Source: an uncultured delta proteobacterium
Lineage (GTDB): Bacteria; Myxococcota; UBA727; VGSZ01
DNA: 64,000 nt
Direction of reading: 5' to 3'
Assembly: GCA_963775425.1 (NCBI GenBank)
Contig: CAVZJB010000005.1
Location: 480,001 to 544,000 of the forward strand
Positions 38,841 to 60,227 of the stretch are shown in pieces (within the stretch, counting starts at the first letter, position 1; every line of letters starts with the position of its first letter). The position numbers were made by a program, and so were the translations under genes. The notes beneath the pieces are model-generated. The model saw only the letters and a list, made by a program, of their open reading frames with translations. It ran no database searches and was not told the DNA's origin.

Positions 38841-41800
38841 ATGCCTTTTCGCCGTCTCCATGTCTTCACCCTTTTGAGCGCCGCCGCCCTGGCCGTGGCC
38901 TCCGCGGGGTGCAGCGAAAAGATCGAGGAGAAGCAAGCCCAGCTCGGCGGCTCCTGCCTCGGCTGCCACACCGGCATCACGGACATCCATCCCCAGTTCG
39001 CGCTCGCCTGCGTCGACTGCCACGGCGGTCACGACGACGTGCCGCTGCCCGCCGTGGTGGACGTGCGCGACCAGGAGCTGTTGAAGGCGAGCCACGTGCT
39101 GCCGCTGGATCCCGAGATGTGGTGGCCCAACGGCATCGACGACAACGGCGACGGCCGGGTGGACGAGCAGGGCGAGTTCTTCGACGGCCGCGTCGTCGAC
39201 CAGGACGGCAACGCCGGCCTCGCCGAAGGGCGCCAGGCGCCGCGCTTCGAGTTCGACAGCGAGATCAACCGCGACCTGAACTACCTGCGCTTCATCAACC
39301 CGGGTGATCTGCGCGTCGCCGAGGTGAGCTGCGGCGGCCACAACAAGAACGCCAATGCGGCCATGGTCTGCCACGCCGAGACCGTCTACGACGTCCGCCG
39401 CTCCATCATGGCGACCAACGCCGGCGTCTCCGCCGGCGCCCTCTACGGCAACGCCCAGCTCCCCACGGCCGCCGACTACGGCAGCGCCTTCGCGCAGTCG
39501 CAGGTGGGCCAGGACTTCGACGCGCGCAACCCGCGCATCGGCCGCGCCGCCTACACGTTCAACTACGAGGCCATGGACGCGAACTACGACCCCGTGTCCA
39601 ACACCTTCGATCACGATGGGCTGCTCGCGGCGGCCAAGGCCAACCTCGATCCCGACGACGACCTCTACGAGGCCACCGCGGGCGCCGTCAGCGACGACGG
39701 CAGCGCCAAGGACCCGTTCGGCAACCCGCTGGATCCGGGCCCCGGCCTCACCCGCACCGGCAACCAGCTCAAGTTCTTCAATCCGACGGACAAGACCAAC
39801 AACCGCGCCATCGACGTCCTCGAGTACATCGGCAACGGCGCCAACCGCACCTTCCCCCCGCCGGGCACGGGCATCGAGCTGCGCCTCCAGAAGATCCTCG
39901 AGGGCCTCGGCGTCGCGCGCCAGAGCCCCATCCGCAACGCCATCCCCAACGACGGCAAGCCCATCATCAACCCTGTGGACGCGGCGCTGCGCAGCTTCCG
40001 CGCGTACCACGTGCTGAACTTCATGTCGCCGAGCGACAACTTCGGCTTCAAGGACTTCACCACGTCGCCCAACGAGGACGATCCGCCGCCCAACGATCCC
40101 AACGACGTCGAGCTCCAGAACAACAACAACCCGTTCGGGCGCTTCCTGTCGTCAGGCTGCACGTCCTGCCACGTCGAGTACGCCAAGGACGGGCACAACG
40201 AGGAGCCCATCGATCGCACTGTGGCGGACAACGGGCGCCAGCCCGAGACCGCGCTGCCCTTCGGCATCCGCCAGGACCTCGGCCAGCGCGCCTATGCCAA
40301 GCGCCACGAGATCAAGACGGCCGTGCAGCTCAACACCTGCGCGCAGTGCCACGGCTTCGTCACCCGCGTCGACTACGCCGCCGAGGGCAAGTTCGAGCTC
40401 GAGGTCGACTTCACCAACCTCTCGCAGGTGCAGACCATCGGGCCCTTCACGTTCTCCACGCCCAAGACCGCGTGCGTGAACGTGTTCGACAACCTCGCCC
40501 ACTACAAGGACGGCAAGATCCTGAACGAGGGCGAGGGCGTCAGCGAGGATCTCAACAACAACGGTGAGCTCGACGAGGGCGAGGACAAGAACAACAACGG
40601 CTGCCTCGACATCCCCAATCGCGTCGCCCGCAGCGACGCCTTCGACGGGCGCCAGTCCAAGCTCATCTACGGAGGCGCCAACGGCTCGGTCCACCTGCAG
40701 GACATCCACATCGAGGAGGGCATGGCCTGCAGCGACTGCCACGTCACCTCGGTGCACGGCGACTCCAACCTGTACACGCGCAATTGGGACGCGGAGCCCA
40801 TGGAGTGCGAGGACTGCCACGGCACCTCGTACGCCAAGGCCAAGCTCATCTCGTCGGGCCCCAACGGCGGCGACAAGTTCACCGACCCCGTGTGGAACAC
40901 GCCGTTCGGCAAGCCCTGGTTCGAGGAGAAGGACGGCAAGATCATCGAGCACAGCCGCACGCAGGCGGGCCTCGAGTGGGAGGTCGCCCAGCTCGTCGAC
41001 GAGAAGGTCGGCGACGCCAAGACGGCGTACGCCAAGTACGCCCACGAGCAGCCGGCGGAGACCATCCCCAATCCAGGTCGTGAGCAGGAGGCGCGCGCCT
41101 TCGCCCACATGCAGGAGGCGGGTAAGCCCGGCGGCCTCGAGTGCTACTCCTGCCACTCCTCGTGGCAGCCCAACTGCCTCACGTGCCACCTCAAGATGGA
41201 CGTGGGCAAGGCCAAGCAGGAGATCTGGTGGGGTGACGACGACGAGTCTGAGATCTTCTTCCAGCTCTTCAGCTACACGCGCTCGCCCTTCTACCTGGGC
41301 CGCGGCGGCGACGTCGAAGGCAACCGCATCTCGACGTACCGCTCCACCATGCAGACGCACCTGACGGTCACCGCCACCGTCGGCAACCAGGGCTTCACCC
41401 TGCTCGACAACGCCATGGTCGCGTCCAACCAGCACCTGAGCTCGATGGTGTCGAACCCGTACTTCCCGCATACGGTGCGCGTCACCGAGACCAAGTCGTG
41501 CGCGCGCTGCCACACGCTCGAGGACGAGCAGGGACGCATCGAGAACGATCACCTCATCACGGAGGCCACGGGCCAGGGCTCGGGCCGCTACATGAACCTC
41601 GGCGATTGGGGCCTGGTGGCCACCACCAACGGCTTCCAGCAGATCGATCTCAAGGCCGAGGGCGGCACGTTCAACGCGCAGGCCAAGGCCCCCGGGATCA
41701 CCTTCCCCGGCTTCGACTTCTCCGACGTCAACCCGCGCCACGCGGACTTCCTCGTGGGCAACGCCACTGACGTGGCCATGCTCCGCGGCGTCGCCTTCGA

Positions 41801-43172
41801 GGACGGCAGCTCCGACCTCGCCGACGTCGCCATCGTGGCGCACAGCGGCGGCGTCTCCATGGTCGACGTCACCGGTCGCGACAACGTGGGCCTGCCGCCC
41901 ACGGAGATCGCGCGCGTGGACTCGCTCGGCCCGGTGGTCTCCGTCGACGTCATCGACACGGCCGCTTCGCAGTCCAAGCGCTTCGTCGCGGTGACGGACG
42001 AGGAGCTGTGCACCATCGACTTCACGAACGCCCTGCAGACCGACACGGTGGCGCCCGTCATCGACGCCGACGCCGGTCAAGAGGGCGACGACGGCGGCGT
42101 GGTGGACGCGGGCGTGGACGGCTTCCTCCAGGGCACGCGCATCGTCGGCTGCCTGCCGCACGGCCTCGACGCCGTCACCCGCGTCAAGCTCCACGGCCGC
42201 TTCGCGGTGGTGGCGCACAGCCGCGGCGTGACGCTGTTCCAGCTCGCGGACAGCGACGACGCGGCGGTGGTGGACCCCGGCGCGCCGCTGGCCGCCATCG
42301 CGACCTTCGAGACCACGCACCCGGCGCTCGACGTCGAGACCTCCGGCCGCTTCATGTACGTGGCCACGGGCCTCGGCGGCGTGGAGACCTTCGACATGGG
42401 CCCCTTCGTCTACCCGCTGTTCGATCAGGACAGCCACGATCCCCTCCAGGGCAGCACGGCGCGCGTCTCCCAGGCGCTCACCAACCAGCAGCAGGAGGCG
42501 GACACGCGCGGCATCGCCGTCTTCGGCAGCCGGCTGCTCGTGGCCGACGGCAAGAACGGCCTGCGCATCCTCGACATGGCGGTGCCCGCCAATCCGCGGC
42601 TCGAGCGCACCATCCGCGACGTCGCGGGCCAGGCGCCCATCGATCAGGCCACGGCGGTGGTGGTGGGGACGGAGACGGTGCGCAACTACGCGCTCGTCGC
42701 CGACGGCTCCCACGGCATCCGCGCGGTGAACATCACGCCGTCCACGGACCTGCGCCTGCAGCTCAAGGACGCGCTCGATCCGGCCAAGCGGGACGCCACC
42801 CGCGGCTTCCGGCTCTCCGAGGAGCGCTGGGACCCGCTCACGCCGTTCGACCCGAAGAACACGACGCCCAAGGTCTTCACCTACGCGACCAACGGGAACG
42901 CGGTCGCGTTGGCCAAGGGCCTGGCCTTCGACAACATCGCGGACAAGAGCGGCAGGCAGCTCCGGGACGGCTGGAGCATCGGCTCCACGACCCTGGATGA
43001 AGCCACCATCGCCAGAATGCGATCGGTGATCGTCAAAGAGGTCCAAGGTACGGTAGACATCTCCGGTGACGGCCTCGGATGCGTCGTGCGCGCAGGCGAC
43101 GAAAACGATGTGGCCAGGGACCCGGAGGATCAGAACCGATGCCTTCCTGTTCAGTCTCGAGGCGGCGAGTGA
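38841..43172 (+). CDS. Large multiheme c-type cytochrome lipoprotein with C-terminal LVIVD/beta-propeller-like region
   Basis: GAGG then ATG 38841; lipobox ASAGC; 9 CxxCH plus one CX12CH; DxNxDG loops; YVATG.GG, LLVADG.NGL.ILD and ALVADG..GI repeats. Confidence 0.9.
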   Translation: MPFRRLHVFTLLSAAALAVASAGCSEKIEEKQAQLGGSCLGCHTGITDIHPQFALACVDCHGGHDDVPLPAVVDVRDQELLKASHVLPLDPEMWWPNGIDDNGDGRVDEQGEFFDGRVVDQDGNAGLAEGRQAPRFEFDSEINRDLNYLRFINPGDLRVAEVSCGGHNKNANAAMVCHAETVYDVRRSIMATNAGVSAGALYGNAQLPTAADYGSAFAQSQVGQDFDARNPRIGRAAYTFNYEAMDANYDPVSNTFDHDGLLAAAKANLDPDDDLYEATAGAVSDDGSAKDPFGNPLDPGPGLTRTGNQLKFFNPTDKTNNRAIDVLEYIGNGANRTFPPPGTGIELRLQKILEGLGVARQSPIRNAIPNDGKPIINPVDAALRSFRAYHVLNFMSPSDNFGFKDFTTSPNEDDPPPNDPNDVELQNNNNPFGRFLSSGCTSCHVEYAKDGHNEEPIDRTVADNGRQPETALPFGIRQDLGQRAYAKRHEIKTAVQLNTCAQCHGFVTRVDYAAEGKFELEVDFTNLSQVQTIGPFTFSTPKTACVNVFDNLAHYKDGKILNEGEGVSEDLNNNGELDEGEDKNNNGCLDIPNRVARSDAFDGRQSKLIYGGANGSVHLQDIHIEEGMACSDCHVTSVHGDSNLYTRNWDAEPMECEDCHGTSYAKAKLISSGPNGGDKFTDPVWNTPFGKPWFEEKDGKIIEHSRTQAGLEWEVAQLVDEKVGDAKTAYAKYAHEQPAETIPNPGREQEARAFAHMQEAGKPGGLECYSCHSSWQPNCLTCHLKMDVGKAKQEIWWGDDDESEIFFQLFSYTRSPFYLGRGGDVEGNRISTYRSTMQTHLTVTATVGNQGFTLLDNAMVASNQHLSSMVSNPYFPHTVRVTETKSCARCHTLEDEQGRIENDHLITEATGQGSGRYMNLGDWGLVATTNGFQQIDLKAEGGTFNAQAKAPGITFPGFDFSDVNPRHADFLVGNATDVAMLRGVAFEDGSSDLADVAIVAHSGGVSMVDVTGRDNVGLPPTEIARVDSLGPVVSVDVIDTAASQSKRFVAVTDEELCTIDFTNALQTDTVAPVIDADAGQEGDDGGVVDAGVDGFLQGTRIVGCLPHGLDAVTRVKLHGRFAVVAHSRGVTLFQLADSDDAAVVDPGAPLAAIATFETTHPALDVETSGRFMYVATGLGGVETFDMGPFVYPLFDQDSHDPLQGSTARVSQALTNQQQEADTRGIAVFGSRLLVADGKNGLRILDMAVPANPRLERTIRDVAGQAPIDQATAVVVGTETVRNYALVADGSHGIRAVNITPSTDLRLQLKDALDPAKRDATRGFRLSEERWDPLTPFDPKNTTPKVFTYATNGNAVALAKGLAFDNIADKSGRQLRDGWSIGSTTLDEATIARMRSVIVKEVQGTVDISGDGLGCVVRAGDENDVARDPEDQNRCLPVQSRGGE

Positions 43173-44890
43173 AGCTCGCGACCCCGGCCGCCGCCCTGTT
43201 TCTCCTCGTGGGAACGGTGGCGGCGGCGAGGGCGGACGCGCAGACAGTCGATGCGTCCGTAGTTCCCACCTATGTGGACAGCGTGCAGCGCGGCCTTCGC
43301 CTGCGCATGGACCTGTGGGGTCGTGAGGCCCTGATCGGCAACCCCGATCCGCCGGTCCAGCTCATCGTCCCGGATGTCGTCAACGAGAAGAACGACACGG
43401 ACGTGGGCGGCATGGTGATCCTGGGCTGGGACAGGCCCTTCGGCGTCCCGCTGACCACCGATCTCATGGGCGACGTCACGAGCGACATCGGCGGTGACTC
43501 GCCGGTGAGCCCGTTCCTCGACGACACGAGCGTCGCGCCCAAGGCCCACATCTATTCGGCGTTCATCGGGCTGTCGGGGGCGCCGGGCGAGGCGCTCGAG
43601 CCGTTCAAGCTCAACATCGGCCGCATGACACAGGTGAGCGAGTCCCCGATCACCTACGACGGCATCTCCACCGGCGTGAACCTCAAGTTCCCCAAGCTCG
43701 GCTTCCTGAACGCCAAGGTCTGGGGCGGCCTCGACGCGCCCCAGCACCTCGCCGCCGATCCCTTCTCCCGCACCGACGCCAAGTACTACCAGGAGCAGTA
43801 CCAGGACCTCTCCGGCTTCGTGTCGCCCACCGGCGGCAAGGAGATCGTTCGCAGCCCGCTCGACTTCAACGCCGACGGCACCCAGGACCCGAACCTCAAC
43901 GCGGTGTTCGGTCTCGACGTCGAGGGCCGCTTCGCGGGCGTCGGCTTCACGCTCACGCACACCTCCATGCCTGCCGCGGGCAGCATCGTCACAGACGAGG
44001 AGAACAACGTGTTCCTGCCGCTCCAGCGCACCACGCTCGAGGGCAGCTACGGTGACGACAGCGATCTGTTGTCATGGATGGTGGCGGCGGACCTGAAGGC
44101 GTCGGACTTCCTGCCGCGCTCCACCGCGCTCAAGGGCGACGTCCTCACCGGCGACGGCACCACCCGCATCGGCGGCAACGTGACGTACCAGTTCCTCGAC
44201 GACATCTGCGCCTACGACTGCACCTTCCGCGCGTTCGACCCCGCCAACAACATCGATCAGGTCCCCGATCAAGGCGCGGTGCTCACCAACGATCAGGTGG
44301 AGGCGGCGCGGGTGCACGATCAGATCCGCCACCTCAACATCGGACCGGCCAAGCCCAACATCGCCCTCGTCGTCGATGCCGAGCGCCAGCTCCCCGCGGG
44401 CTTCACCGCCCTGTTGCGGGGCCGGGTGCGCCAGCACTTCAACGCGGCCGACCTCGATTACTTCCGCACCAACGTCTACGAGGCGGGCGCGGGGGCGAGC
44501 TGGTCCACGGGCCTCGCGCTCGAGGTCGGCACCGAGGTCTACGGTGGCGCCCTCGACTCCGGCGCCGCCGCGGACAAGGGGCTCGACTACACCCTCGTTC
44601 AGGAAGGGATCACCTCCTACGTCGAGAATCGCACCTGGGTCCGCACCGTCCTTCTGGAGGGGAAGCTGTCGAACCTGGCCGAGGCCTTCGTGCGCAGAGA
44701 GGACATCCAGACCAAGGCGCTCGTCGCCTCCGGCCAGTGGAGCGGCGCCTTCGCCGACACGCTGCGCTACGACGTCATCGACTTCTGGTCCGTCTCCGCC
44801 CGGCTCGACGCGGATGCGCTGTCGCCGGTCGACACGCTGAACGGCTCGGGGTACCTCGGGGCCCTGGTGGCGACCTCACTCAAGTTCTGA
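43169..44890 (+). CDS. Probable outer-membrane beta-barrel (porin partner of the multiheme cytochromes)
   Basis: GTGA overlap; signal peptide ending ARADA; amphipathic beta-strand patterns; C-terminal Phe (ALVATSLKF); no heme motifs; sits between cytochrome genes. Confidence 0.7.
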   Translation: MKLATPAAALFLLVGTVAAARADAQTVDASVVPTYVDSVQRGLRLRMDLWGREALIGNPDPPVQLIVPDVVNEKNDTDVGGMVILGWDRPFGVPLTTDLMGDVTSDIGGDSPVSPFLDDTSVAPKAHIYSAFIGLSGAPGEALEPFKLNIGRMTQVSESPITYDGISTGVNLKFPKLGFLNAKVWGGLDAPQHLAADPFSRTDAKYYQEQYQDLSGFVSPTGGKEIVRSPLDFNADGTQDPNLNAVFGLDVEGRFAGVGFTLTHTSMPAAGSIVTDEENNVFLPLQRTTLEGSYGDDSDLLSWMVAADLKASDFLPRSTALKGDVLTGDGTTRIGGNVTYQFLDDICAYDCTFRAFDPANNIDQVPDQGAVLTNDQVEAARVHDQIRHLNIGPAKPNIALVVDAERQLPAGFTALLRGRVRQHFNAADLDYFRTNVYEAGAGASWSTGLALEVGTEVYGGALDSGAAADKGLDYTLVQEGITSYVENRTWVRTVLLEGKLSNLAEAFVRREDIQTKALVASGQWSGAFADTLRYDVIDFWSVSARLDADALSPVDTLNGSGYLGALVATSLKF

Positions 44891-44912
44891 ACTCTCTCTT
44901 TCGGATGACGCC

Positions 44913-45908
44913 GTGAACCTGCGATCGCTCGCCCCCCTCGGACTCTCCCTGGCAGTCGCCGCCACGTGCGCCGGCGTGGGCGTCGCGTTCGCCGCCCACG
45001 CGGCGCCCCCCGCGCCGCCGCCGGCCGCGCCGCCGCCGCCGGCGGCCACGGGCAACGGCCCGCCCACGGGGATGAACCTCATCGACACCTCGAGCCCCTT
45101 CGACCACGACGTCCACCTGAACCCCGCCAAGATGGGCGGCAAGAAGATGGGCTGCGAGTCCTGCCACAAGATGGTGAACAAGGACGGCACCTGCCCCAAG
45201 CAGGAGGTGCGGTTCCCCGAGCACGACGCCTGCCAGGCGTGCCACACGGCGAACTTCTATACGCAGCCGCTCACCATCTGCACCAACTGCCACAAGGCCA
45301 ACATCTTCCAGAAGCGGCCGCCGCTGCGCGAGCTGACCCGGCAGGTCACGCCGCGCAAGGCGGAGTTCTCGCACCGAAGCCACCTCGATGCGAAGAAGGG
45401 CACGGACTGCACCTCGTGCCACTCGGTGCTCAGGGGCGGCCTCGTCATCGGGCACCCGAGCCACCCGAACTGCTGCCAGTGCCACTCGGGCCCCGGGCTC
45501 AACGGCAAGATCGCCGAGCCGCACATGAACAAGTGCGGCTCCTGCCATGACACGGCGAAGAACGCCGGGCGTCCGCCGTCCACCATCCACGACTTCAGCC
45601 ACAAGATGCACCGCGAAGACCCGCGTACGCATACGTCGGTGGCGTGCCAGCAGTGCCACATCAACATGGTCCAGGCCACGACGCTGCGGCAGATCCGCAT
45701 CCCGCCGATGCCCGTGTGCCTGCAGTGCCATGACGGCTCCGATCCGAACAAGCCGAACCCCAAGAACCCGGCGTGGAGCGGCACGGGCGCGTTCAACTTC
45801 ACCGCGTGCCTGAAGTGCCACCTCCCGGGCAGCATCCAGAACCGCCCGCTGCCTCCGGGCCACCCGGGGGCTCCCACCGCTCCCACCGAGGCGGGGGCCA
45901 ACCCATGA
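44913..45908 (+). CDS. Periplasmic nonaheme cytochrome c (three c7/c3-like triheme modules)
   Basis: Signal peptide; 9 CxxCH; FDHDVH, FSHRSH and FSHKMH each open a group of three hemes. Confidence 0.9.
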   Translation: MNLRSLAPLGLSLAVAATCAGVGVAFAAHAAPPAPPPAAPPPPAATGNGPPTGMNLIDTSSPFDHDVHLNPAKMGGKKMGCESCHKMVNKDGTCPKQEVRFPEHDACQACHTANFYTQPLTICTNCHKANIFQKRPPLRELTRQVTPRKAEFSHRSHLDAKKGTDCTSCHSVLRGGLVIGHPSHPNCCQCHSGPGLNGKIAEPHMNKCGSCHDTAKNAGRPPSTIHDFSHKMHREDPRTHTSVACQQCHINMVQATTLRQIRIPPMPVCLQCHDGSDPNKPNPKNPAWSGTGAFNFTACLKCHLPGSIQNRPLPPGHPGAPTAPTEAGANP

Positions 45909-47950
45909 GTGCCGCTGTCTTCCGCCGCCGCGTCCGCGCGGCGCTGCCCTTCGCCGGTCTCGCGGTCCTCGTCGTCGCCGGCGCGCTCGTGGTGAACGGG
46001 GCCATGGCCACCGAGCGCCACAAGGTCGAGGACGGCGAGACCGTCGAGGCCATCGCGCAGGCGATGTACGGCGATCCCGGCAAGGCCGCCATCGTCCGCG
46101 CGGCGAACAAGATCCCCGACGGCGAGCAGCCGGCGGTGGGCGCGTTCCTCAAGATCCCCGGGCCGCTGATCCACACGGTGCAGGCCGGTGAGAACCTGCA
46201 GAAGGTCGCCGACCGCTTCCTCTCCGGCGAGGGCGGCGCGGCCATCATCGCCGAGGCCAACGGTCTCGCGGCCAACGCGCACTTGAAGCCCGGCCAGGTG
46301 CTGACGGTGCCGGCCGAGGTGGAGCTGCGCACCAAGGGCAAGTCCGCGGAGGACATCGCCACCGCGCTCCTCGGCGACGCGCACCTCGGCGCGCGCATCC
46401 GCCGCTACAACGGCGTCGCCGACGGCGGGAAGCTGCCCGCCAAGATCTACGTGCCCCTCGTCGGCATCGAGCCGCTCGGCGCGCCCGGCGCCGTCGCGGT
46501 CGCGCCCGCCGCGCCTGCGCCTGCGCCCACGCCGGCGCCGCCGACGGCGCCCGCGCCCGTCCCCGCCGCGCCGGTCCCCGCCGCGCCGGTCCCCGCGCCG
46601 GCCGCGCCTGCACCGGCGGCGCCTGCGCCCGCGGCGCCTGCTCCCGCGGCGCCTGCTCCGGCGGCGCCGGCCCCGCTGCGCCGGCGGCTCCGGCCCCCGC
46701 GGCCCGCGCCCGCGCCCGCGCCCGTGCCCGCGCCCGTGCCCGCGATGTCGCCTGCGATGGGCGGCCCGATCGATCTCACGATGCCGGTCACGGGCAAGCG
46801 CGCCACGCTCGCGGGCTTCTCGCACGCGCTGCACACGCCGCTGCAGATCGGCGGCAAGCCCGTCGGCTGCCTCGTGTGCCACGAGCGCGTGTCGCCGGAG
46901 TCCGTCGAGCACAAGGCGCCGTCCAAGGACAACTGCATGCTCTGCCACAAGGTGAGCGACGACATGCCGGCGCAGCTTCGCAAGGGACAGATCAAGCGGC
47001 TGCCGCTGCCGATGAACCACGAGCTGCACGTCGGGCAGAACGGCCTCGACTGCATCATCTGCCATCGCAACGAGCCCGAGCGGGCGCTCGGCATCATCAC
47101 CAACGGCCACGCGGCCTGCACCGTCTGCCACAACGCCAACGGCGGAAAGACGCCGTACGTCGGCGGCGACCCCGAGGGCGCGATGTGCACGCAGTGCCAC
47201 GGCACCGTCGAGCAGGTCGACGAGGGCAACGAGCACACCAAGTACCTGCGCGCGCACCTGATGCGTCCCGTGGGCCGCGTGGGCGACGTGAGCTTCACGC
47301 ACATGACGCACGCGGCGTTCTCCGAGAGCGGCGCGCCGGGCAGCGGTCCCGCCATCGACTGCAAGACCTGCCACGTCGACGCGTACACGGCAGAGCGCAA
47401 GGAAGACATCTCCAAGGTGCAGATGCAGGGCTGCCTCGAGTGCCACCGCGAGGCGAACGCGGTGGGGCTTCAGCCGCCGCAGTCGTGCAACGGCTGCCAC
47501 CTCTATCTGCGTCGCGGCGAGATGCCGATCAACCAGCTCACGCTCAAGAAGCCCATCGACCACACGCCGTTCTTCCGACGTCACCACGCCGACGCGGCGC
47601 GCGACAACGCGCCCCTATGCGCGTCGTGCCACGTGGGCTCCGACGGCGCGGACGGTAGCCGCTGCGACACCTGCCACATGACGATGAAGCCGCGCGATCA
47701 CACCGCCGGCTTCCGCGACAAGGTGCATGGGCGGGAGTCGCAGATCGATCCTGCGCGTTGCCAGGTCTGTCACCGCGCCGAGCGCTGCGAGAGCTGCCAC
47801 CGAGAAGTGCCCAAGAGCCACTTCCCGCTGAACGTCTGGGTCGACAAGGGTCTCCACGGCTCGCGCGGCCGCCTCGAGATGGGCGCATGCCTCACCTGCC
47901 ACCGCTTCGAGACCACCTGCCAGCGTTGCCACACCGCCGTCGCCAAGTAG
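45905..47950 (+). CDS. LysM x3, Pro/Ala linker, 14-heme cytochrome c
   Basis: ATGA overlap; signal peptide; HKVEDGETVEAIA..AN..G..LKIP, HTVQAGENL..AN..LKPGQVLTVP and a degenerate third LysM; 14 CxxCH. Confidence 0.9.
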   Translation: MSAAVFRRRVRAALPFAGLAVLVVAGALVVNGAMATERHKVEDGETVEAIAQAMYGDPGKAAIVRAANKIPDGEQPAVGAFLKIPGPLIHTVQAGENLQKVADRFLSGEGGAAIIAEANGLAANAHLKPGQVLTVPAEVELRTKGKSAEDIATALLGDAHLGARIRRYNGVADGGKLPAKIYVPLVGIEPLGAPGAVAVAPAAPAPAPTPAPPTAPAPVPAAPVPAAPVPAPAAPAPAAPAPAAPAPAAPAPAAPAPLRRRLRPPRPAPAPAPVPAPVPAMSPAMGGPIDLTMPVTGKRATLAGFSHALHTPLQIGGKPVGCLVCHERVSPESVEHKAPSKDNCMLCHKVSDDMPAQLRKGQIKRLPLPMNHELHVGQNGLDCIICHRNEPERALGIITNGHAACTVCHNANGGKTPYVGGDPEGAMCTQCHGTVEQVDEGNEHTKYLRAHLMRPVGRVGDVSFTHMTHAAFSESGAPGSGPAIDCKTCHVDAYTAERKEDISKVQMQGCLECHREANAVGLQPPQSCNGCHLYLRRGEMPINQLTLKKPIDHTPFFRRHHADAARDNAPLCASCHVGSDGADGSRCDTCHMTMKPRDHTAGFRDKVHGRESQIDPARCQVCHRAERCESCHREVPKSHFPLNVWVDKGLHGSRGRLEMGACLTCHRFETTCQRCHTAVAK

Positions 47951-47971: not shown

Positions 47972-47980
47972 TCGCGACCC

Positions 47981-48303
47981 CGGCGCCATGGCCAACGCCG
48001 GCGCCATGGCCAACGCCGGCGCCATGGCCAACGCCGTCGCCGTGGCCAACGCCGGCGCCATGGCCAACGCGGGCGCCGCTGGCGCTGCCGGCGCCGTGGC
48101 AAACGCCGGCGTCGCCGCCGACGCCGGCGCCGTGGCCAACGCGGCGCATCGCCAACGCCGGCGCCATGGCCCACGCCGGCGTCATGGCCCACGCCGGCGC
48201 CGTGGCCCACGCCGGCGCCGCCCGCGCTGCCGGCGCCGTGGCCCACGCCGGCGCCGCGGCCCACGCCGGCGCTGCCGGCGCCGTGGCCCACGCCGGCGCC
48301 GCC
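47981..48303. repeat. Degenerate 18-bp tandem repeat GCCGGCGCC(A/G)TGGCC(A/C)AC
   Basis: Reads ANAGAM, then AHAGAV, with a frame break near 48145. Confidence 0.9.
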
Positions 48304-50526: not shown

Positions 50527-50554
50527 GCGCGGCGCGCCCACGCCGCCGCTCGCG

Positions 50555-52105: not shown

Positions 52106-52147
52106 GTCCCCGAGGATGCCCGCCCGGGCGTCGGAAAACAAACCACG

Positions 52148-52177
52148 TTGTCGCGCCCGAGGCCGCCGCAGTAGGCT
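52148..52177 (+). promoter_or_regulatory. Putative sigma70 promoter TTGTCG-N18-TAGGCT, possibly giving a leaderless transcript
   Basis: The -10 hexamer ends 7 nt before ATG 52185; no Shine-Dalgarno sequence. Confidence 0.4.
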
Positions 52178-52184
52178 GGCCGCA

Positions 52185-53627
52185 ATGACCGACGTCTCCG
52201 ACGAGTGGACGGCGCTTCTCAAGGCCATCCCCTTCCTCTCCGCGCTCCCGGAAAAGACCCTGAAGGACAGGGTCATCCTCGGAAAGATCCCGCAGGCCGA
52301 GGTGCCCGCCTCCCTCGTCGAGGTAGGCGACGGCGAGCTGGTGATCCGCGAGGGGGACTTCGGCGACACCTTCTACGTCATCGTCAACGGCACCTTCGTC
52401 GTCGAGGTGTGGAACGACGACGGCGTCGCCGTCGAGGTCACGCGCATCGGCCGCGGCTCCTACTTCGGTGAGCTCGCCATGATCGGCCGCGGCATGCGCG
52501 CGGCGTCGGTGAAGGCGGTCGGCGCGGGCGCGCAGGTGCTCGAGATCTACAAGGGCCCGTTCGACCGCATCATCAAGGACGACAAGACCAACTCGGTGAA
52601 GAACGCGCTCGAGGCCATCTACGCGCGGCGCACCATCGAGAAGTTCGTGCGTGACAACGAGTACCTGCGCGAGCTGTCCGAGGTCGACAAGAAGCTGATC
52701 GTCGACACCGGCAAGCTTCACCGCGTGGAGGCCTTCCACGACGTGTACAAGGCCGGTGATCCGCCCAAGAGCTTCTACCTCGTGCGCCAGGGCTTCCTGA
52801 AGGTGTGGCGCATGGAGGGCGAGGTGGAGAGCATCCTCGCCTACCTGCGCGACAAGGACTTCTTCGGCGACCTCGAGCTCGTCGAGGGGCGCCAGCGCAC
52901 GGCCACGGTGACGTCGATGGAGCCGGTTGAGCTCGTGGAGCTGCCGCGCTCGGTGTTCGCCGGCATCTACCAGCGCTACCCCGACCTCATCAAATCGTTC
53001 CGCCGCTACGAGCTCGACCGCCGCGCCGAGCTGCCGCAGTTGTCGAGCAAGACCGGCATGATGTTCGTCAAGGACCTCATCGAGTCCGGCATGGGCCAGG
53101 CGCGCTCGGCGCTCATCATCAACATGGACCTGTGCACCCGCTGCGGCAATTGCGTGCAGGCGTGCAGCGACCTCCACGACGGGTACTCGCGGCTCATCCG
53201 CCGCGGCAAGAAGCTCACCCACCGTGACGACGGCGGCGGCCTCGAGAACCTCTTCTTCCCGAACTCCTGCGTGCATTGCCGCACGCCCGACTGCATGGCC
53301 GGCTGCCCCGTCGGCTCCATCGCGCGCGACAAGGACGGCGAGGTCTACATCAAGGACTTCTGCGTCGGCTGCGGCGCGTGCGCCAAGGGCTGCGAGTTCG
53401 GCAACATCTCGATGGTGGTCGCCAAGAACGCCGACGGCACCGAGAAGAAGATGGCCGGCAGCAACAAGGTCGTGCGCAAGGCCTCCAAGTGCGACATCTG
53501 CAAGGGCTACGAGCAAGCCAACTGCGTCTACAACTGCCCGCAGGGCGCCATCATCCGCATCGACCCCAACGAGTACTTCGAGGAGCTCCACCGCACGGTG
53601 GACATCGTCTCGATGGCGCAGGGCTGA
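52185..53627 (+). CDS. Tandem cyclic-nucleotide-binding domains fused to a 4x[4Fe-4S] DmsB/NrfC-like ferredoxin
   Basis: FGELAM...RAASV and FGDLEL...RTATV; CTRCGNCVQAC, CVHC...CMAGCP, CVGCGACAKGC, KCDIC...CVYNCP; no signal peptide. Confidence 0.9.
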   Translation: MTDVSDEWTALLKAIPFLSALPEKTLKDRVILGKIPQAEVPASLVEVGDGELVIREGDFGDTFYVIVNGTFVVEVWNDDGVAVEVTRIGRGSYFGELAMIGRGMRAASVKAVGAGAQVLEIYKGPFDRIIKDDKTNSVKNALEAIYARRTIEKFVRDNEYLRELSEVDKKLIVDTGKLHRVEAFHDVYKAGDPPKSFYLVRQGFLKVWRMEGEVESILAYLRDKDFFGDLELVEGRQRTATVTSMEPVELVELPRSVFAGIYQRYPDLIKSFRRYELDRRAELPQLSSKTGMMFVKDLIESGMGQARSALIINMDLCTRCGNCVQACSDLHDGYSRLIRRGKKLTHRDDGGGLENLFFPNSCVHCRTPDCMAGCPVGSIARDKDGEVYIKDFCVGCGACAKGCEFGNISMVVAKNADGTEKKMAGSNKVVRKASKCDICKGYEQANCVYNCPQGAIIRIDPNEYFEELHRTVDIVSMAQG

Positions 53628-53677
53628 GGCCCGGCTGCCGGCGACCTCACGCCGGCGCTCCGCGGTAGCATCGGCGC

Positions 53678-55990
53678 ATGCGCGCCCCCGCCCTCTTCGT
53701 CATCGCCGCCGCGTTGGGCTCCCTCGCGGGCGGCTGCTCCTCGTGCGGCGCGCCCGCGGCGTCGGACGCCGGCCCGGGCGGCGGCGAGGGCGAAGGGGAA
53801 GGCGAAGGCGAAGGAGAGGGCGACGTCGACGCCGGGACCCCCGACGCCGGGCCGCAAGACGCGGGCCCGCCCAATCCGAACGCCGTGGGCCTCGACGCGC
53901 GCCCGTCGAACCCCACGTGCCTCGCGCAGGACCGGCCGCCCACGGGGAGCACCGTCGACTTCGAGGAGCCCTGGCCCGAGCTGAACGTCGTCTCGCCGGT
54001 CTTCATGCTCCAGGAGCCCGGCACCACGACGATGTACGTCGTGCAGCGCGGCGGGAAGGTGGTGCGCTTCGACAAGGCCGACGCCGCCGTCACAAACCCC
54101 GAGGTCTTCGCGGACATCACGGCGAACGTGCAGGCCAACGACGTCGGCAACGACGAGCGCGGTCTCCTGGGCATGGCCTTCCATCCGGACTGGCCGCAGG
54201 TGCAGGAGGTCTTTTTGAGCTACACCGGCTTCGGCGCCGGCGGCGCCCTCGTGGACCGCGTGTCGCGCTTCACGCTCGCGGCCGACGGCACCGTCGACGT
54301 CGGCAGCGAGCAGATCCTCCTCGACACCGCCGACTTCGCCGGCAACCACAACGGCGGGATGATCGCGTTTTCGCCCACGGACGCCTGCCGCGGCTGCCTG
54401 TACTACGGCGACGGCGACGGCGGGCAGGCCGACGACCCGCACCAAAACGGCCAGTCCGGGCAGACGCACCTCGCCAAGATCCTGCGCATCGACATCGACA
54501 GGACCGACCCGGGCCTCCCCTACGCCATCCCGCCGGACAACCCGTTCGTCGACGACGCCGACTTCCTCCCCGAGATCTACGCGTACGGGGTGCGCAACCC
54601 GTGGCGCTGGAGCTTCGACCGCGACAGCGGCGACCTCTGGGTCGGCGACGTCGGGCAGGGCGCCGTGGAGGAGGTCGACAAGATCCTCGCCGGCGGCAAC
54701 TACGGCTGGGACATCCTCGAGGGCGACCAGTGCCACGAGCAGACGTCGGGGAGCTGCAATCAGGGCGGCTTCGAGGCGCCCATCACCACGTACACCCACG
54801 CCGGCGGCCGCAACGCGATCGTCGGCGGCTACGTCTACCGGGGCAGCGCCATGCCCGCGCTCGTGGGCACGTATTTGTTCGCGGACTTCGGCACCGGTGA
54901 GATCTTCGCGCTGTTCTTCGACACCCAGGGCAACGCGGCGCCGCAGCGCGTGGGCGACTCGCCGAACAACATCGCGAGCTTCGCCGAGGACGCCGACGGC
55001 GAGCTCTACGTCCTCGACCACGCCACCGGCATCGTTCGCAAGCTCGTAGCTGCGGGCCCGCAGCCGCCGGACAACTTCCCGCGTCTGCTGTCGCAGACCG
55101 GGTGCGTCGACCCGGCCGACCCGGCGGCGCCGGCGGGCGGGCTCATCCCGTACGGGGTCAACCATGTCCTGTGGTCCGACGGCGCCGTGAAGGAGCGCTT
55201 CATGGGCCTGCCCGACGGGCTGAAGGCCACCATCCTCGACGACGGCGACATCGACTTCCCCGTGGGCACGGTCCTGATGAAGACCTTCAAGGTCGGCGGC
55301 GTGCGCGTGGAGACGCGGCTGTTGATGCACCACGACGACGGCGACTGGGGCGGCTACACCTACGAGTGGAACGACGCCGGCACCGACGCCACCCTGCTGC
55401 CGCCGGCAGGCAAGATCAAGGCGCTGCCAAACGGCCAGCTCTGGACGTACCCGTCGCGCAACGGCTGCCTCGCCTGCCACACCGCCGCCGCGCACCGCGC
55501 GCTCGGTCCCGAGGTGGCGCAGCTCAACGGCGGCTTCGTCTATCCCGACGGCCGCTTCGCGAACCAGCTCCATACCCTCGACGCCATCGGCGTGCTCGAC
55601 GCGCCGCTGCCGGGCGCCCTGGCGGACCTGCCGGCGTTCCCGCCCGTCGACGACGCCGCGGCGTCGCCCGAGGCCGTGGCGCGGGCGTACCTGCACGTGA
55701 ACTGCTCCATCTGCCATCGCCCGGGCGGCATCGGCGTCGCCGACACGGACTGGCGCTTCACCACGGCGTTTCAGGACATGGCCTTGTGCAACGCCGAGCC
55801 CACCGAGGGTGACCTCGGCGTCGCCGGCGCCAAGCGCCTCGTCCCCGGAGACCCCGCGCGCTCCCTCATCTCGCTGCGCATGAAGCGTTTGGGCGCCGGC
55901 CGCATGCCGCTCCTCGGCAGCGTCGTCGTGGACCCCCAGGGCACCGCGGCCATCGACCGTTGGATCACGTCGCTGTCGTCATGTCCCTGA
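53678..55990 (+). CDS. Lipoprotein: PQQ-dependent sugar dehydrogenase (GSDH-like propeller) fused to a diheme cytochrome c domain
   Basis: LAGGC lipobox; (GE)n/DAG linker; ERGLLGMAFHP, NHNGG, YAYGVRNPWR, GNYGW; LWSDGA.KER, CLACH, YLHVNCSICH, RMP. Confidence 0.88.
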   Translation: MRAPALFVIAAALGSLAGGCSSCGAPAASDAGPGGGEGEGEGEGEGEGDVDAGTPDAGPQDAGPPNPNAVGLDARPSNPTCLAQDRPPTGSTVDFEEPWPELNVVSPVFMLQEPGTTTMYVVQRGGKVVRFDKADAAVTNPEVFADITANVQANDVGNDERGLLGMAFHPDWPQVQEVFLSYTGFGAGGALVDRVSRFTLAADGTVDVGSEQILLDTADFAGNHNGGMIAFSPTDACRGCLYYGDGDGGQADDPHQNGQSGQTHLAKILRIDIDRTDPGLPYAIPPDNPFVDDADFLPEIYAYGVRNPWRWSFDRDSGDLWVGDVGQGAVEEVDKILAGGNYGWDILEGDQCHEQTSGSCNQGGFEAPITTYTHAGGRNAIVGGYVYRGSAMPALVGTYLFADFGTGEIFALFFDTQGNAAPQRVGDSPNNIASFAEDADGELYVLDHATGIVRKLVAAGPQPPDNFPRLLSQTGCVDPADPAAPAGGLIPYGVNHVLWSDGAVKERFMGLPDGLKATILDDGDIDFPVGTVLMKTFKVGGVRVETRLLMHHDDGDWGGYTYEWNDAGTDATLLPPAGKIKALPNGQLWTYPSRNGCLACHTAAAHRALGPEVAQLNGGFVYPDGRFANQLHTLDAIGVLDAPLPGALADLPAFPPVDDAAASPEAVARAYLHVNCSICHRPGGIGVADTDWRFTTAFQDMALCNAEPTEGDLGVAGAKRLVPGDPARSLISLRMKRLGAGRMPLLGSVVVDPQGTAAIDRWITSLSSCP

Positions 55991-56158
55991 GCGCCGTGAA
56001 GCGGGCAGGCGCGGTCGCGTTCGCCCCGGCGCTCGCGGCGGCCCTTGGGGCGCGAGGCGGCCCGGGGCGCGCCGGCGCCGGTGCCGTCGTCCCACATCGA
56101 CGTTCCTTCGGGCGGCAGGGTCGACTTCGAGGGGGAGATCAGGGATAACGGGCCCCCG

Positions 56159-57085
56159 ATGGCAAGCACGACAGCACCCGCCCCTGCCGCGCCGCTGAAG
56201 CCGAAGAGCAGCAAGAAGCTCTCCGACAAGACACTCAAGGAGCGCGCGTTCCGCTGGGACAAGCTCGCCGCGTGGCTCGCGGCGTTCTTCGCCCTGGCCG
56301 CCGTCTGCGGCCTGTGGGCGCTCTCCAAGTACGTCCTCGACGCGCCGTCGCGGGGCGGGCGCGGCACCGGCGGCGACACCATCGTCGGCTACACCCTCGC
56401 GGGCATCACCCTCATCCTCTACGGCGTCGTCGCCGCGTACTCGTGGCGCCACAAGCGGCGCCGGCAGAAGCGCGCGATGACCCGGGTCTGGATGGAGGTG
56501 CACCTGGCGTTCGGCATGGTCGCCGGCGTCACGGCCATCCTCCACTCGGGCCCCAAGCTCGGGGCGCCCATCCACGGCGCGTTCCTCATCGCCTGGGAGC
56601 TCCTCATCCTCACGGGCATCGTCGGCAAGCTCATCAGCGTCTACGTGCCGCGCCGGCTCACGCGCATCGAGGACGAGGCCCTGCTGGTGGAGGACGTGGC
56701 CGAGCGCCAGAAGGCCATGCGCCTCGAGATCGAGCAGCTCCTCACGGACTGCGACGACAAGCTGGTGCACATCGTCAACGACGTCATCCCCAAGAAGATC
56801 AAGGCGCCCGACTGGTACGGCAAGCGCCGCATGAAGCGCCACGACGTCGTGGAGAGCGTCTACAAGGCCATCGACGGCGAGGGCATGCTCGCCCGCGGCG
56901 AGGTCCCCGCCGACAAGAAGGACTGGCTCAAGCGCATGATCACGTGCCTGGTCGAGGAGGAGTTCCTCGATCGCATGCTCACCTACCACTACGTGCTGCG
57001 CGCGTGGGTGCCCGTCCACGTGGCGCTCACCACGCTGTGCTTCCCCTGGCTCATCTTCCACGTCGTCAGCGTGTTCTTGATCTAG
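56159..57085 (+). CDS. Inner-membrane protein with two H-x13-H helices (putative di-heme b, ferric-reductase-like TM domain)
   Basis: About 5 TMs; WMEVHLAFGMVAGVTAILH and WVPVHVALTTLCFPWLIFH. Confidence 0.78.
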   Translation: MASTTAPAPAAPLKPKSSKKLSDKTLKERAFRWDKLAAWLAAFFALAAVCGLWALSKYVLDAPSRGGRGTGGDTIVGYTLAGITLILYGVVAAYSWRHKRRRQKRAMTRVWMEVHLAFGMVAGVTAILHSGPKLGAPIHGAFLIAWELLILTGIVGKLISVYVPRRLTRIEDEALLVEDVAERQKAMRLEIEQLLTDCDDKLVHIVNDVIPKKIKAPDWYGKRRMKRHDVVESVYKAIDGEGMLARGEVPADKKDWLKRMITCLVEEEFLDRMLTYHYVLRAWVPVHVALTTLCFPWLIFHVVSVFLI

Positions 57086-57095
57086 AGGTCCACCG

Positions 57096-60000
57096 ATGTT
57101 CTGCCTGAAGGTCGTCGACGGACTGTCTGCCGGTATCGAGATCCTGCTCAAGCAGGGAGGCACCACCACCGTCGGCCGCGCCGAGGACGCCGACGGTCAG
57201 ATCGAAGACGGCCTGTGCTCCGGCAAGCACTTCGAGATCGAGTGGACGGCGGCGGGGATGATCATCAAGGACCTCGGGTCCTTGAACGGCGTCTTCGTCA
57301 ACGGCGAGCGCGTCCGCGAAAACCGCCAGGTCAAGCGCGGCGACTTCATCCAGGCCGGGACCACGCTGATGGAGATCGCCGTCAGCTCGGGCAACGTCGA
57401 GGTCAAGGTCAGCGAGCGCGAGCCGGCCATCAGCGGCAAGGCCACGATGATGATGGACGCGGCGGCGGTGCAGGACGCCATCGCGCGCACCCGCGCCCAG
57501 GCGCGCGTGAAGGCCAAGGAGCTCAACCGCACCGTCATCAAGACGCAGATGATGACCAAGGCCGAGATCGCCAAGCTGATGACCGATCAGCCGGTGAGCA
57601 AGGCCAAGACCATGGTCCTGCAGGCGCTCCCGCCGGAGATCCTCGCGGGCACCAACAACGCCGGCCTGGCCATCCTGCAGAAGCTCCTCGCCGACGTCAC
57701 GCCCGACAACCCCACCGTGTGCGTGGTCAAGAAGGGCGCGTCCATCACGCCCTACGCCAAGAGCGTCATCACGCTCGGCCGTGACGCGCGCAACGACATC
57801 CCGCTCATCAGCGACGACGTCTCCGGCAGCCACGCCCGCATCGTGAAGGAGCCGTCGGGGCGCTTCGAGGTCATCGACGAGGGCTCCACCAACGGCACCT
57901 TCGTCAACGGCAAGCGCGTCGTGCGCCAGTACCTGCAAAACGGCGACACCATCCAGCTCGGCCAGTGGACCGGGCCCGTGGCGCTCTCTGCCGGGCGCAT
58001 GGCCATGGAGCTCAACCGCGAGGGCGTCTCCGTCAAGGACGACAAGGGCGTCATCAAGGTCCTCAAGGTCGGCGACGAGGGCGCCAAGGAGTGGGACCCG
58101 CTTCTGCGTGAAGCCGTGCGCGCGCCGATGCTCGTCAAGAGCGACCGTGGCGAGAAGTTCAAGAAGAAGAAGAAGGGCAAGAGCGCCGACGACATCGCGT
58201 TCCGCGCCACCGGTGACGTCCAGCGCGGGGCGATGAAGAGCCGGCTCGCGTGGGCCGGCGTCCTGACGTCGCCGATCGTCATCGCGCTGTTCTTCGGCGG
58301 CTACTTCGTCGTCTCGCTGCTGCACAAGGGCTCCACCTTCGATGCGCTCTCCCCGGGCGCCATCACCAACGCGCACGCGAGCGAGACGTTCATCGCCAAG
58401 GCCAAGGAGGCGGCGTCGGCGGAGAACAAGTTCGGCGGTCACACCACCTGCTTCGCGTGCCACCCCGGGCTCAACCGCGAGGTGACGGACACCGCCTGCT
58501 CGAGCTGCCACTCCCAGGTACCGACGTCGACGCACACCGAGGTGGGGCTCACCTGCTTCGACTGTCACGGCGAGCACAACGGCCGCAACTTCTCGCCGAC
58601 GGCGCAGGCGCGGCTCGGCTGCGTCGGCTGCCACCAGGGCGACCCGCACGCGCGCCTCTTCGACAAGGGCGAGGGGAAGAAGGCGCGGGCCAAGGCGCCG
58701 GTGATCACGCAGGCGCAGCTCAACATCGACAAGGCCGAGGTGCACGAGAAGCACTTCAACATCGAGGGGCGCTGCGTCGCGTGCCACGCCGTCGCCGAGG
58801 GTGCGACGGCGCTGACCAGCCCGGAGGAGATCGCCAAGCAAGCGCGCAAGTCGTGCGGCATCTGCCACGCCGCCACCGACCCGCAGCCCGACGAGTGCGT
58901 GCGTTGCCACGTGCAGCACCCGAAGGACGCCGCGCTCGTCGAGTTCCTGAAGGCGCAGCCCACCAACGAAGACGACATCAAGCAGGCGCGCATCGATCCC
59001 GGCACCGTGCCCATCTTCCTCGCGCTCGCCTTCGGCATGACGCTGCCGCTCGTGCTCGCGGCGGTGGTCAAGCCGAAGCCGAAGCAGAAGAAGGAGCAGG
59101 TCGTCGAGGAGAAGGCGGGCGCCAAGCCTGCGGGCGCTCCCGCCGGCGCCGCGCCGCCTCCGCCCGGCCCGCCGGGCGCGCCGCCGCCCCCTCCCGGGGC
59201 GCGGGCTCCGGGGCCACCTCCCCCGCCACCGGGCGGGGCGCCGCCGCCTCCGCCGCCGGGCGGGGCGCCGCCGCCGCCGCCGCCACCGGGCGGGCGCGCG
59301 GCGCCGCCGCCGCCTCCGCCGCCGGGCGGCATGGCGCCGCCTCCGCCGCCTCCGCCGGGGGGCGCGCCGCCGCCGCCGCCTCCGCCGCCGGGGGGCCGCG
59401 TCGCGCCGCCGCCTCCGCCGCCGCCCGGCGGGGTCCCCGCGCCGCCGCCGCCGCCCGGTGGCGTGCCGCCTCCGCCTCCGCCCCCGGGAGGGATGGCGCC
59501 GCCTCCGCCTCCGCCGCCGGGCGGTGTGCCGCCTCCGCCCCCTCGTGCCGCGCCGCCGCCTCCCCCGGGAGTCCCGCCGCCGCCGCCGCCCCCCGGAGGC
59601 CCGCCGCCGCCGCCGCCCGCCGCGGCCCGGCCAGCGCCCGCGGCGCCGCCGCCTCCGCCCCCGCCCGCCGCGGTGGCGCCTCCGCCGCCTCCTGCGGCGC
59701 GGCCGGCGCCGCCGCCGCCACCCCCTCCCGCCGCGCGGCCAGCGCCGCCTCCGCCGCCTCCCGCGGCGCGGCCGGCGCCTCCACCGCCGCCGCCGGCAGC
59801 CGCACCTCCGCCGCCGGCGCCCCGGCCGGTGGCGCCGGCGCCGGTGCCCGCGCCTCCTCCGCCGGCTCCGGTGGTGCGCGCGGGGACCAAGGCCGCGATG
59901 CAGATCCCGGCACAGCCCGCCCCGGTGCCGGCGCAGCCCGCGGTGCGCGCGGGGACCAAGGCCGCGATGCAGATCCCCGACCCGCGCCAGGCGCCACAGC

Positions 60001-60227
60001 CGCCACAGCCGCCGCAGCAGGGGCAGCCGCCGCCACAGCAGCCGCCACCGCAGGGGCAGTTCCGCAACCCGACGACGGCCAAGGGGACGATGCTCGGGAC
60101 CATGCCCGTCGTCGACGAGGACATGATCCGGCGCGCCCAGCAGCAGATCAACCAGGGCAAGCCCGGCACGCAGGTCTCCGGCAAGGGCGGCGCCGCGCCG
60201 CTGCCGCCGGACAAGGACAAGAAGTAG
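57096..60227 (+). CDS. 2xFHA, TM, heptaheme cytochrome c, TM, poly-proline tail
   Basis: VGR..SGKH..GSLNGVFVNG and LGR..SGSH..STNGTFVNG; two hydrophobic helices flank 7 CxxCH; long GGxPPPPPPP region. Confidence 0.9.
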   Translation: MFCLKVVDGLSAGIEILLKQGGTTTVGRAEDADGQIEDGLCSGKHFEIEWTAAGMIIKDLGSLNGVFVNGERVRENRQVKRGDFIQAGTTLMEIAVSSGNVEVKVSEREPAISGKATMMMDAAAVQDAIARTRAQARVKAKELNRTVIKTQMMTKAEIAKLMTDQPVSKAKTMVLQALPPEILAGTNNAGLAILQKLLADVTPDNPTVCVVKKGASITPYAKSVITLGRDARNDIPLISDDVSGSHARIVKEPSGRFEVIDEGSTNGTFVNGKRVVRQYLQNGDTIQLGQWTGPVALSAGRMAMELNREGVSVKDDKGVIKVLKVGDEGAKEWDPLLREAVRAPMLVKSDRGEKFKKKKKGKSADDIAFRATGDVQRGAMKSRLAWAGVLTSPIVIALFFGGYFVVSLLHKGSTFDALSPGAITNAHASETFIAKAKEAASAENKFGGHTTCFACHPGLNREVTDTACSSCHSQVPTSTHTEVGLTCFDCHGEHNGRNFSPTAQARLGCVGCHQGDPHARLFDKGEGKKARAKAPVITQAQLNIDKAEVHEKHFNIEGRCVACHAVAEGATALTSPEEIAKQARKSCGICHAATDPQPDECVRCHVQHPKDAALVEFLKAQPTNEDDIKQARIDPGTVPIFLALAFGMTLPLVLAAVVKPKPKQKKEQVVEEKAGAKPAGAPAGAAPPPPGPPGAPPPPPGARAPGPPPPPPGGAPPPPPPGGAPPPPPPPGGRAAPPPPPPPGGMAPPPPPPPGGAPPPPPPPPGGRVAPPPPPPPGGVPAPPPPPGGVPPPPPPPGGMAPPPPPPPGGVPPPPPRAAPPPPPGVPPPPPPPGGPPPPPPAAARPAPAAPPPPPPPAAVAPPPPPAARPAPPPPPPPAARPAPPPPPPAARPAPPPPPPAAAPPPPAPRPVAPAPVPAPPPPAPVVRAGTKAAMQIPAQPAPVPAQPAVRAGTKAAMQIPDPRQAPQPPQPPQQGQPPPQQPPPQGQFRNPTTAKGTMLGTMPVVDEDMIRRAQQQINQGKPGTQVSGKGGAAPLPPDKDKK

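Follow-up and report, generated by a model that had tools for sequence, protein, structure and literature searches.

In a 64-kb window, the whole stretch analysed here (contig C5, positions 480001-544000), from an 8.26-Mb myxobacterial host genome (72% GC, 18 contigs, 94.6% complete), seven genes look like the parts of a single trans-envelope electron conduit related to PCC4/Ptd and having a regulated cytoplasmic end. They are A, B, C, D, G, I and J, lettered with their neighbours in order from window position 38841 to 60227. We consider it probable that a physical conduit exists, and give roughly even chances to the fuller description, in which all seven genes form one regulated, PCC4/Ptd-related system. 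A more specific proposal is tentative, namely that a surface heme wire, whose inner end lacks a catalytic domain, is opened and closed by a cyclic nucleoside monophosphate (cNMP) acting on an iron-sulfur (FeS) protein and by phospho-Thr docking to FHA domains. Named homologues of the window proteins carry the labels Myxococcota or Deltaproteobacteria. The genes, in window coordinates, are the following.

A, 38841..43172, plus strand: lipoprotein of 1443 residues (Cys24) with nine CxxCH motifs and a probable Cx12CH site, Asp-rich Ca-binding-like repeats and a C-terminal region of LVIVD repeats.
B, 43139..44890, plus strand: outer-membrane beta-barrel of about 22 strands with a C-terminal Phe, according to a model and fold matches.
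C, 44913..45908, plus strand: predicted periplasmic nine-heme cytochrome.
D, 45905..47950, plus strand: LysM domains, a Pro/Ala linker and 14 hemes, the last six of them a predicted barrel plug.
E, 48304..50526, plus strand: YfhO-like membrane protein (PF09586) of uncertain start; an insertion.
F, 50555..52369, minus strand: PMT-like glycosyltransferase (PF02366), given as the longest open reading frame (ORF), the true start being probably lower; an insertion.
G, 52185..53627, plus strand: cytoplasmic protein with two cNMP-binding domains and four [4Fe-4S] groups (NrfC/DmsB-like), a PtdE homologue without a flavin domain.
H, 53678..55990, plus strand: glucose/sorbosone dehydrogenase-like domain (PF07995) and SO2930-type diheme domain (TIGR03806); an insertion.
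I, 56159..57085, plus strand: five-helix inner-membrane protein of PCC3/PCC4 type with two W-x3-H-x13-H motifs and TGxxG, a predicted di-heme b protein.
J, 57096..60227, plus strand: FHA-linker-FHA in the cytoplasm, a helix, seven hemes in the periplasm, a second helix and a Pro-rich tail.

The inner genes carry the regulatory side of the proposal. The soluble G protein (480 residues) has the composition given in the original prediction, with two cNMP domains (PF00027, E value 7e-35) and 16 Cys in four ferredoxin-type groups. Its first cNMP domain shows the canonical FGE..R signature of the phosphate-binding cassette in CRP-like cyclic nucleotide receptors (G95 in 31/31, E96 in 28/31 and R105 in 26/31 aligned rows); the second domain is less conserved and has D in place of E. 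I comprises 308 residues with five hydrophobic segments and a helical model of predicted local distance difference test (pLDDT) 91. The two H-x13-H helices predicted for it were found among these five, as W-x3-H-x13-H motifs on helices 3 and 5 (W111/H115/H129 and W283/H287/H301), and helix 4 carries TGIVG, with Ser in 47 and Thr in 45 of 98 alignment rows at the first position and G153 in all 98. All four His are invariant in these 98 rows, the distant ones of which were preselected for both motifs; without preselection, 125 of 146 representatives have at least two H-x13-H motifs. Nearly all I relatives longer than 600 residues (30/31) are fusions of G and I, and the remaining one joins an I domain to a cytochrome. 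When 301 genomes of the phylum were sampled, an I-type domain, often fused, turned up in 97 (a tally that includes one unpublished genome, G189) and G in 13. J likewise agrees with its description as an inner-membrane 2xFHA/seven-heme protein, with two FHA domains (PF00498, E value 2.5e-36) followed by helix, seven hemes and helix; its tail (residues 669-940) is 57% Pro. A flavin domain hidden behind that tail was considered and rejected, with no Pfam flavin domain found and five flavoprotein queries unmatched in the window and contig C5.

A recount confirmed the 41 CxxCH motifs reported earlier (A 9, C 9, D 14, H 2, J 7); 1000 shuffles of each protein gave a maximum of one or two. Gene A had been described as a nine-heme lipoprotein, and its lipobox and nine CxxCH motifs stand, together with the LVIVD repeats, with the count of hemes probably one too low. 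C164-x12-C177-H178 (window 39330-39374) aligns with CxxCH in two of eight homologues (L117, L136) and with extended spacings in the other six, L125 and L143 having Cx4CH, L070 and L074 Cx15CH, and two family members Cx12CH. Based on this alignment, A is probably a decaheme protein, the Cx12CH site being its tenth heme site and the 42nd of the cluster. MccA sulfite reductase is marked by an atypical Cx15CH motif. A could be read as a multiheme catalyst acting on a single soluble substrate, with the chain serving A and not minerals or electrodes. We hold this to be quite improbable. Its low heme density (about 95 residues per CxxCH versus 22-25 in C, D and J), its large inserted domains and the variable spacing of its Cx12CH site among homologues would suit an enzyme, as would the distant homologues of A, in which no lipobox is seen and which are accompanied by an HbpS-like heme protein. 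However, A is matched to no solved enzyme (PDB sequence searches gave nothing) and, above cut-off, to no curated family, and the site in question is a canonical CxxCH in L117 and L136. Atlas matches of A residues 25-900 all scored <0.9. A catalytic A would in any case be compatible with the conduit and does not exclude it.

To define the conserved unit, we compared the locus with other genomes of the family. B, I and J each occur in the same seven of ten genomes and A and G in the same six of nine, and none of A, B, G, I or J was found in three genomes of genus g3 (92-98% complete); these genomes are kin, so shared presence and absence are not independent tests. The set A-B-C-D-G-I-J stands together in two of the seven genomes holding it: G007 has A-B-C-D-G, one unrelated gene and I-J on a single contig, while G003 has B-C-D-G-I-J, with G directly before I, and A-B on a second contig. 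In five of six family genomes the gene after D is G; the left and right blocks, whose linkage in relatives had been set beforehand as a test of the prediction, proved to be linked. Second copies of A occur at L175:8383-12573 (G003) and in L174 (G007), the G003 copy having no other cluster gene within 20 kb.

Within the window, A to D overlap or are spaced by gaps within 22 bases and I and J lie 10 bases apart, with the unrelated membrane genes E (plus strand) and F (minus strand) between D and G. Since this interval holds an opposite-strand gene, the two blocks are probably separate transcripts in the host genome. A scan for promoters and terminators was uninformative (0 promoter-like sites; 8 terminator-like sites against 7.1 expected). 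The family loci showed no E, F or H; a single 47-residue match of F overlaps the start of G on the opposite strand. Orthologues of H lie outside the cluster, on other contigs, in 10/10 family genomes, including the three that lack it. On these grounds H, put forward originally as a pyrroloquinoline quinone (PQQ) dehydrogenase/diheme member of the conduit, was rejected, and the unit is reduced to seven genes. Judged from gene order, the PQQ/diheme gene and the two membrane genes are local insertions; the eight co-oriented genes of the original prediction therefore become seven that form one unit, interrupted by E and by F on the minus strand. An 18-base tandem array of 16.4 copies lies between D and E (window 47980-48272), and a GC-rich array with 19-, 26- and 45-base periods occupies window 63110-63454.

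B belongs to no Pfam or NCBIfam family, and its PDB sequence search was empty. The predicted beta-barrel was nevertheless recovered in a model built from 53 aligned sequences (about 22 strands, pLDDT 79.5), for which the fold matches listed were barrels. D, which in a PDB sequence search matched only ACIII subunit A and a reaction-centre cytochrome, was picked as its modelling partner because D-like genes adjoin a candidate porin gene in L070, L074, L073 and on C11 of the host genome. The modelled B-D complex scored 0.81 against 0.00 for the best control, with at least 61% of contacts common to the runs and a partner pLDDT of at least 69; 116 of 157 solved pairs pass the score mark, as do 2 of 215 mismatched ones, counts that are only rough for alignments of our own. 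All confident contacts fall on D 549-680, the part with the last six hemes, and touch 17 of the 22 B strands, often at alternate residues. A long loop of B (352-406), outward-facing if strand parity is counted from the C-terminus, also contacts D in the model. The model suggests that the C-terminal hemes of D insert into the barrel, although its score may stem from likeness to solved porin-cytochrome complexes. His398 of B (window 44330-44332) is invariant in the 53 sequences and contacts heme motifs 12-13 of D in the complex model. Elsewhere in the host genome, C11:611620-623364 holds an NrfC/NrfD-like pair, a candidate porin and ORFs with 10, 4, 11, 16 and 7 motifs; the 11-heme ORF after the porin resembles the C-terminal part of D. 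A predicted lipoprotein of 2292 residues with 53 CxxCH is encoded at C11:445609-452487.

Relatives of the core are spread across phyla. A scan of named genomes with I alone found no relative, and alignment of G found the loci; the counts that follow refer to 80 loci, the best of 423 named ones that have a G relative, the smaller denominators being loci with room for the comparison. An I relative is present in 74/80 and fused to G in 35/80, the next gene encodes a multiheme protein in 56/62, and a thioredoxin reductase (TrxR)-like FAD/NAD(P)H module occurs in 43/57. Homologues of A are found in 8/80, in Myxococcota, Acidobacteriota and others. In loci of Haliangiales, Kofleriaceae, Bryobacterales and Blastocatellia, the third gene encodes FHA domain(s), a helix, 6-8 hemes, a helix, 2x[4Fe-4S] and an FAD/NAD(P)H domain. 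Sphingobium herbicidovorans MH has the flavin domain fused to G, and an A homologue and a candidate porin lie 2 kb past its multiheme gene; the core is also present in the cultured Enhygromyxa salina, Labilithrix luteola and Oceanospirillum sediminis. Homologues of C adjoin the G-I-J core in L066, L068 and L073. An HbpS-like heme protein stands beside A-type cytochrome and candidate porin genes at L136:1489-2985, L117:1202-2893 and L187:25786-27762, and was counted in five of the 80 loci as well as in Sphingobium.

The notion of a single wire has to be weighed against two separable modules, an outer porin-cytochrome unit of A-B-C-D and an inner G-I-J unit, linked to quinol and FeS, from which various periplasmic acceptors would be supplied. 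E and F split the blocks in the window, I and J have come to lie apart from G in G005, G008 and G009, the low frequency of A homologues in the named loci points the same way, and the outer parts vary by lineage, B matching the porin of L073 weakly at best (E value 0.0018) and giving no hit to the PCC4 porins. Nevertheless, D and G adjoin each other across the supposed boundary in most family genomes, A, B, G, I and J are held or missing in the same genomes, and several phyla have A-type genes next to the core, which leaves two separable modules improbable.

The inner end differs from that of most relatives. J ends in a Pro-rich tail in all seven family relatives examined (the G008 copy is cut at a contig end) and stops after the helix in loci of the L066 type. 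In most relatives the wire is closed by a flavin module; based on this comparison, the host lineage has lost it, a point that the original prediction missed. The nearest flavin modules in the host genome belong to two PCC3-like clusters (C11:169593 and C4:375159), in which an FeS-flavin module is fused directly to the membrane domain, with neither cNMP nor FHA domains. These clusters (C11:166921-179987 and C4:372511-382267) each contain the FeS-flavin-membrane fusion, a 30-heme cytochrome, a candidate porin and a further ORF with 29 or 8 motifs, and they are natural ungated comparators.

The same features could fit a redox sensor, in which the heme chain would report the outside redox state to the FeS clusters of G, and G together with the FHA domains of J would relay it to cyclic AMP or kinase signalling. 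The Pro-rich tail of J and its shortened end in L066-type loci would suit such a role, kinase and FHA-cyclase genes are neighbours in relatives, and the two separate PCC3-like conduits, with flavin and without cNMP domains, could carry respiration. Yet the cluster contains no output domain (kinase, cyclase or DNA-binding), some 40 hemes would be costly for sensing, and the flavin module has been kept in most relatives; a sensor is thus unlikely in our estimation.

Regulation by a cyclic nucleotide or by Thr phosphorylation is proposed because the binding motifs are intact and because signalling genes are neighbours in relatives. FHA domains that bind phospho-Thr are recognised by the residues G-R, S-x-x-H and N-G, and both FHA domains of J keep them, as do eight aligned relatives. 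The linker between them holds three Thr motifs kept across the family (candidate sites T117, T150 and T172), and a similar motif surrounds T290 of G. Of 28 Polyangia-type loci, 18 had room for the comparison, and in 17 of these a kinase gene stands directly upstream (background 4.4%); they represent one clade. In L136, a PP2C phosphatase and a kinase gene follow right behind the flavin gene. We rate control of the conduit by a cyclic nucleotide as slightly better than an even bet, and control through phospho-Thr as falling a little short of one. At L144:14715-16943, in a Zetaproteobacterium, a receiver-cyclase-metallophosphoesterase fusion directly follows a PCC4-like decaheme gene. A five-heme protein of Polyangia/Nannocystaceae (L080:6877-9987) has about 300 cytoplasmic residues that seemed kinase-like by eye, but the N-terminus gave no Pfam kinase hit; its locus type is the one with the upstream kinase gene.

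Several observations weigh against a signal-gated conduit. On the signalling side, cyclases lie near five of the 80 named loci (three FHA-cyclases, one GAF-cyclase and one receiver-cyclase-phosphoesterase), only about twice the host-genome background of 3.2%. Kinases lie near 33/80, equal to the background of 37%, so a general kinase enrichment near the core was not borne out, and no cyclase or kinase was found near the window locus. The pattern T-x-M-[MLIV] was enriched 2.6-fold in other FHA proteins of the host genome (10 hits, p 0.006), a modest value, and the pattern had been chosen after J was seen; a second pattern gave p 0.058. T290 of G may simply cap a helix. As for the conduit itself, a strict operon is broken in three of six family genomes, where G is not followed by I (G005, G008, G009), I and J diverge in G010, G001 has G in inverted orientation between D and I, and the opposite-strand gene splits the blocks in the host genome. 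L066 holds the inner core and a C homologue with no porin gene seen nearby. The flavin partner is not in the cluster, and no match to it was found in G008 or G009 (88-89% complete). Finally, the fold matches of I are middling.

Among described systems, PCC4 is the closest. In He et al. 2017 (PMC5566968), it is a predicted system with a porin, 4-, 5- and 10-heme cytochromes, an FeS gene and a five-helix membrane protein with W-x3-H-x13-H, and the PCC3/PCC4 membrane protein is characterised by five helices, about 300 residues, SGxxG on helix 4 and two W-x3-H-x13-H motifs. For the likewise predicted ptdABCDEFG, Elbon et al. (bioRxiv 10.1101/2023.11.21.568154) name a cyclic nucleotide-binding domain in PtdE and call the function completely unknown. 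The window system shares with PCC4/Ptd a cNMP-[4Fe-4S] protein, then the five-helix membrane protein, then a membrane-anchored multiheme protein, together with a porin and further cytochromes; G lies upstream of I, with H between them in the window and nothing between them in G003. G matches its counterparts in L141 and L144 at E values of 2e-42 and 5e-50, and the I profile matches L141 at 99.8%, these loci having been assigned to PCC4/ptd by gene order, heme counts and taxa, without the papers' own sequences. In contrast, the cytochromes here have 9 (10), 9, 14 and 7 hemes where PCC4 has 4, 5 and 10, A and J have no match to the 5- and 10-heme proteins of L141, and the B profile reaches only E 1.7 with the porins of L141 and L144, barrels being quick to diverge. 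FHA domains, the LysM 14-heme plug and the LVIVD lipoprotein are further differences, and the cluster encodes no FAD/NAD(P) oxidoreductase. In a quick tree, made without bootstrap or a formal clade test, I falls outside a branch with support 99 that groups seven PCC4-like rows. Because the heme set, the flavoprotein gene and the tree position differ, we place the window system outside PCC4/Ptd proper and regard the two as alike in the core.

PCC3 shares the membrane-protein signature and combines a porin with periplasmic and probable outer multiheme cytochromes, but has long repetitive wires (median 21 and 34 hemes) according to He et al. 2017. The resemblance to MtrCAB and the Geobacter porin-cytochrome complexes lies in a cytochrome modelled inside a barrel and a lipoprotein cytochrome as its likely outer partner; A, B and D have no sequence match to these complexes. 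The B model matched the MtrB chain 6r2q_B, among many barrels, with a template modelling score of 0.35. These complexes are not known to have a linked cytoplasmic FeS/cNMP protein. The statement in the original prediction that porin-cytochrome conduits lack signalling domains is sound for the characterised ones; it does not extend to PCC4/ptd clusters, which carry a cNMP-FeS protein and an H-x13-H membrane protein. Two H-x13-H helices are also found in the membrane domains of ferric reductase/NOX and cytochrome b561, from which I differs by a long cytoplasmic helical insert and an FeS protein partner. The matches are all weak: the best PDB sequence match of the I profile is 5o0t (E value 0.048), and its fold search returned mostly generic helical bundles, with superoxide oxidase at Z 8.0 (root-mean-square deviation 3.1, 129 aligned) and STEAP4 at Z 7.1.

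A search for FHA together with cytochrome found no paper describing the cluster, in a literature from which subscription journals were mostly absent; the PCC4 domain-architecture figure or the ptd supplements may note cNMP or FHA domains. The accessible parts of three reports (10.1101/2022.05.06.490989, 10.1101/2022.03.26.485925 and PMC10732223) contain no description of it, and the second mentions many unassigned multiheme clusters in Myxococcota. The inner core is already described as a predicted system; what the window system adds is FHA domains as an input, an inner end without flavin, a LysM cytochrome as the predicted plug and a decaheme with LVIVD repeats.

From the motifs and models above, we infer the cofactors, the path of the electrons, their direction and the gating as follows. 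The four [4Fe-4S] clusters of G would exchange electrons with the two b hemes of I, which may also touch the quinone pool, and I would exchange them with the seven c hemes of J. J would in turn connect to C, in the periplasm, and to hemes 1-8 of D, which the LysM domains would hold on peptidoglycan, and the last six hemes of D, inside the barrel of B, would connect to the decaheme lipoprotein A as terminal partner. In relatives, the path would be closed by the TrxR-like FAD/NAD(P)H module, carried by J or G or encoded in an adjacent gene; since most relatives have it, the ancestral role was most likely moving NAD(P)H electrons outward. With the module lost in the host lineage, electrons would come from quinol through I or from a soluble partner through G. 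Binding of a cyclic nucleotide to the first cNMP domain of G, and phospho-Thr docking by the FHA domains of J, at the three linker sites or T290 of G, would decide whether G is engaged.

Such a wire, gated by two signals, might possibly belong, as one branch, to a family of signal-gated conduits that spans several phyla, an idea we advance with caution. The same speculative reading holds that flavin-free PCC3-like controls are absent and that the flavin-fused paralogues in the host genome are ungated. With the core present in the four cultured strains named above, including Sphingobium herbicidovorans MH, the PCC4/Ptd family is testable, and G, as a soluble protein, suits a simple binding and redox assay. 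Characterised extracellular electron conduits are known to be controlled mainly through gene expression; if the proposal is true, direct switching of the wire by a second messenger or phosphorylation would represent a new level of control.

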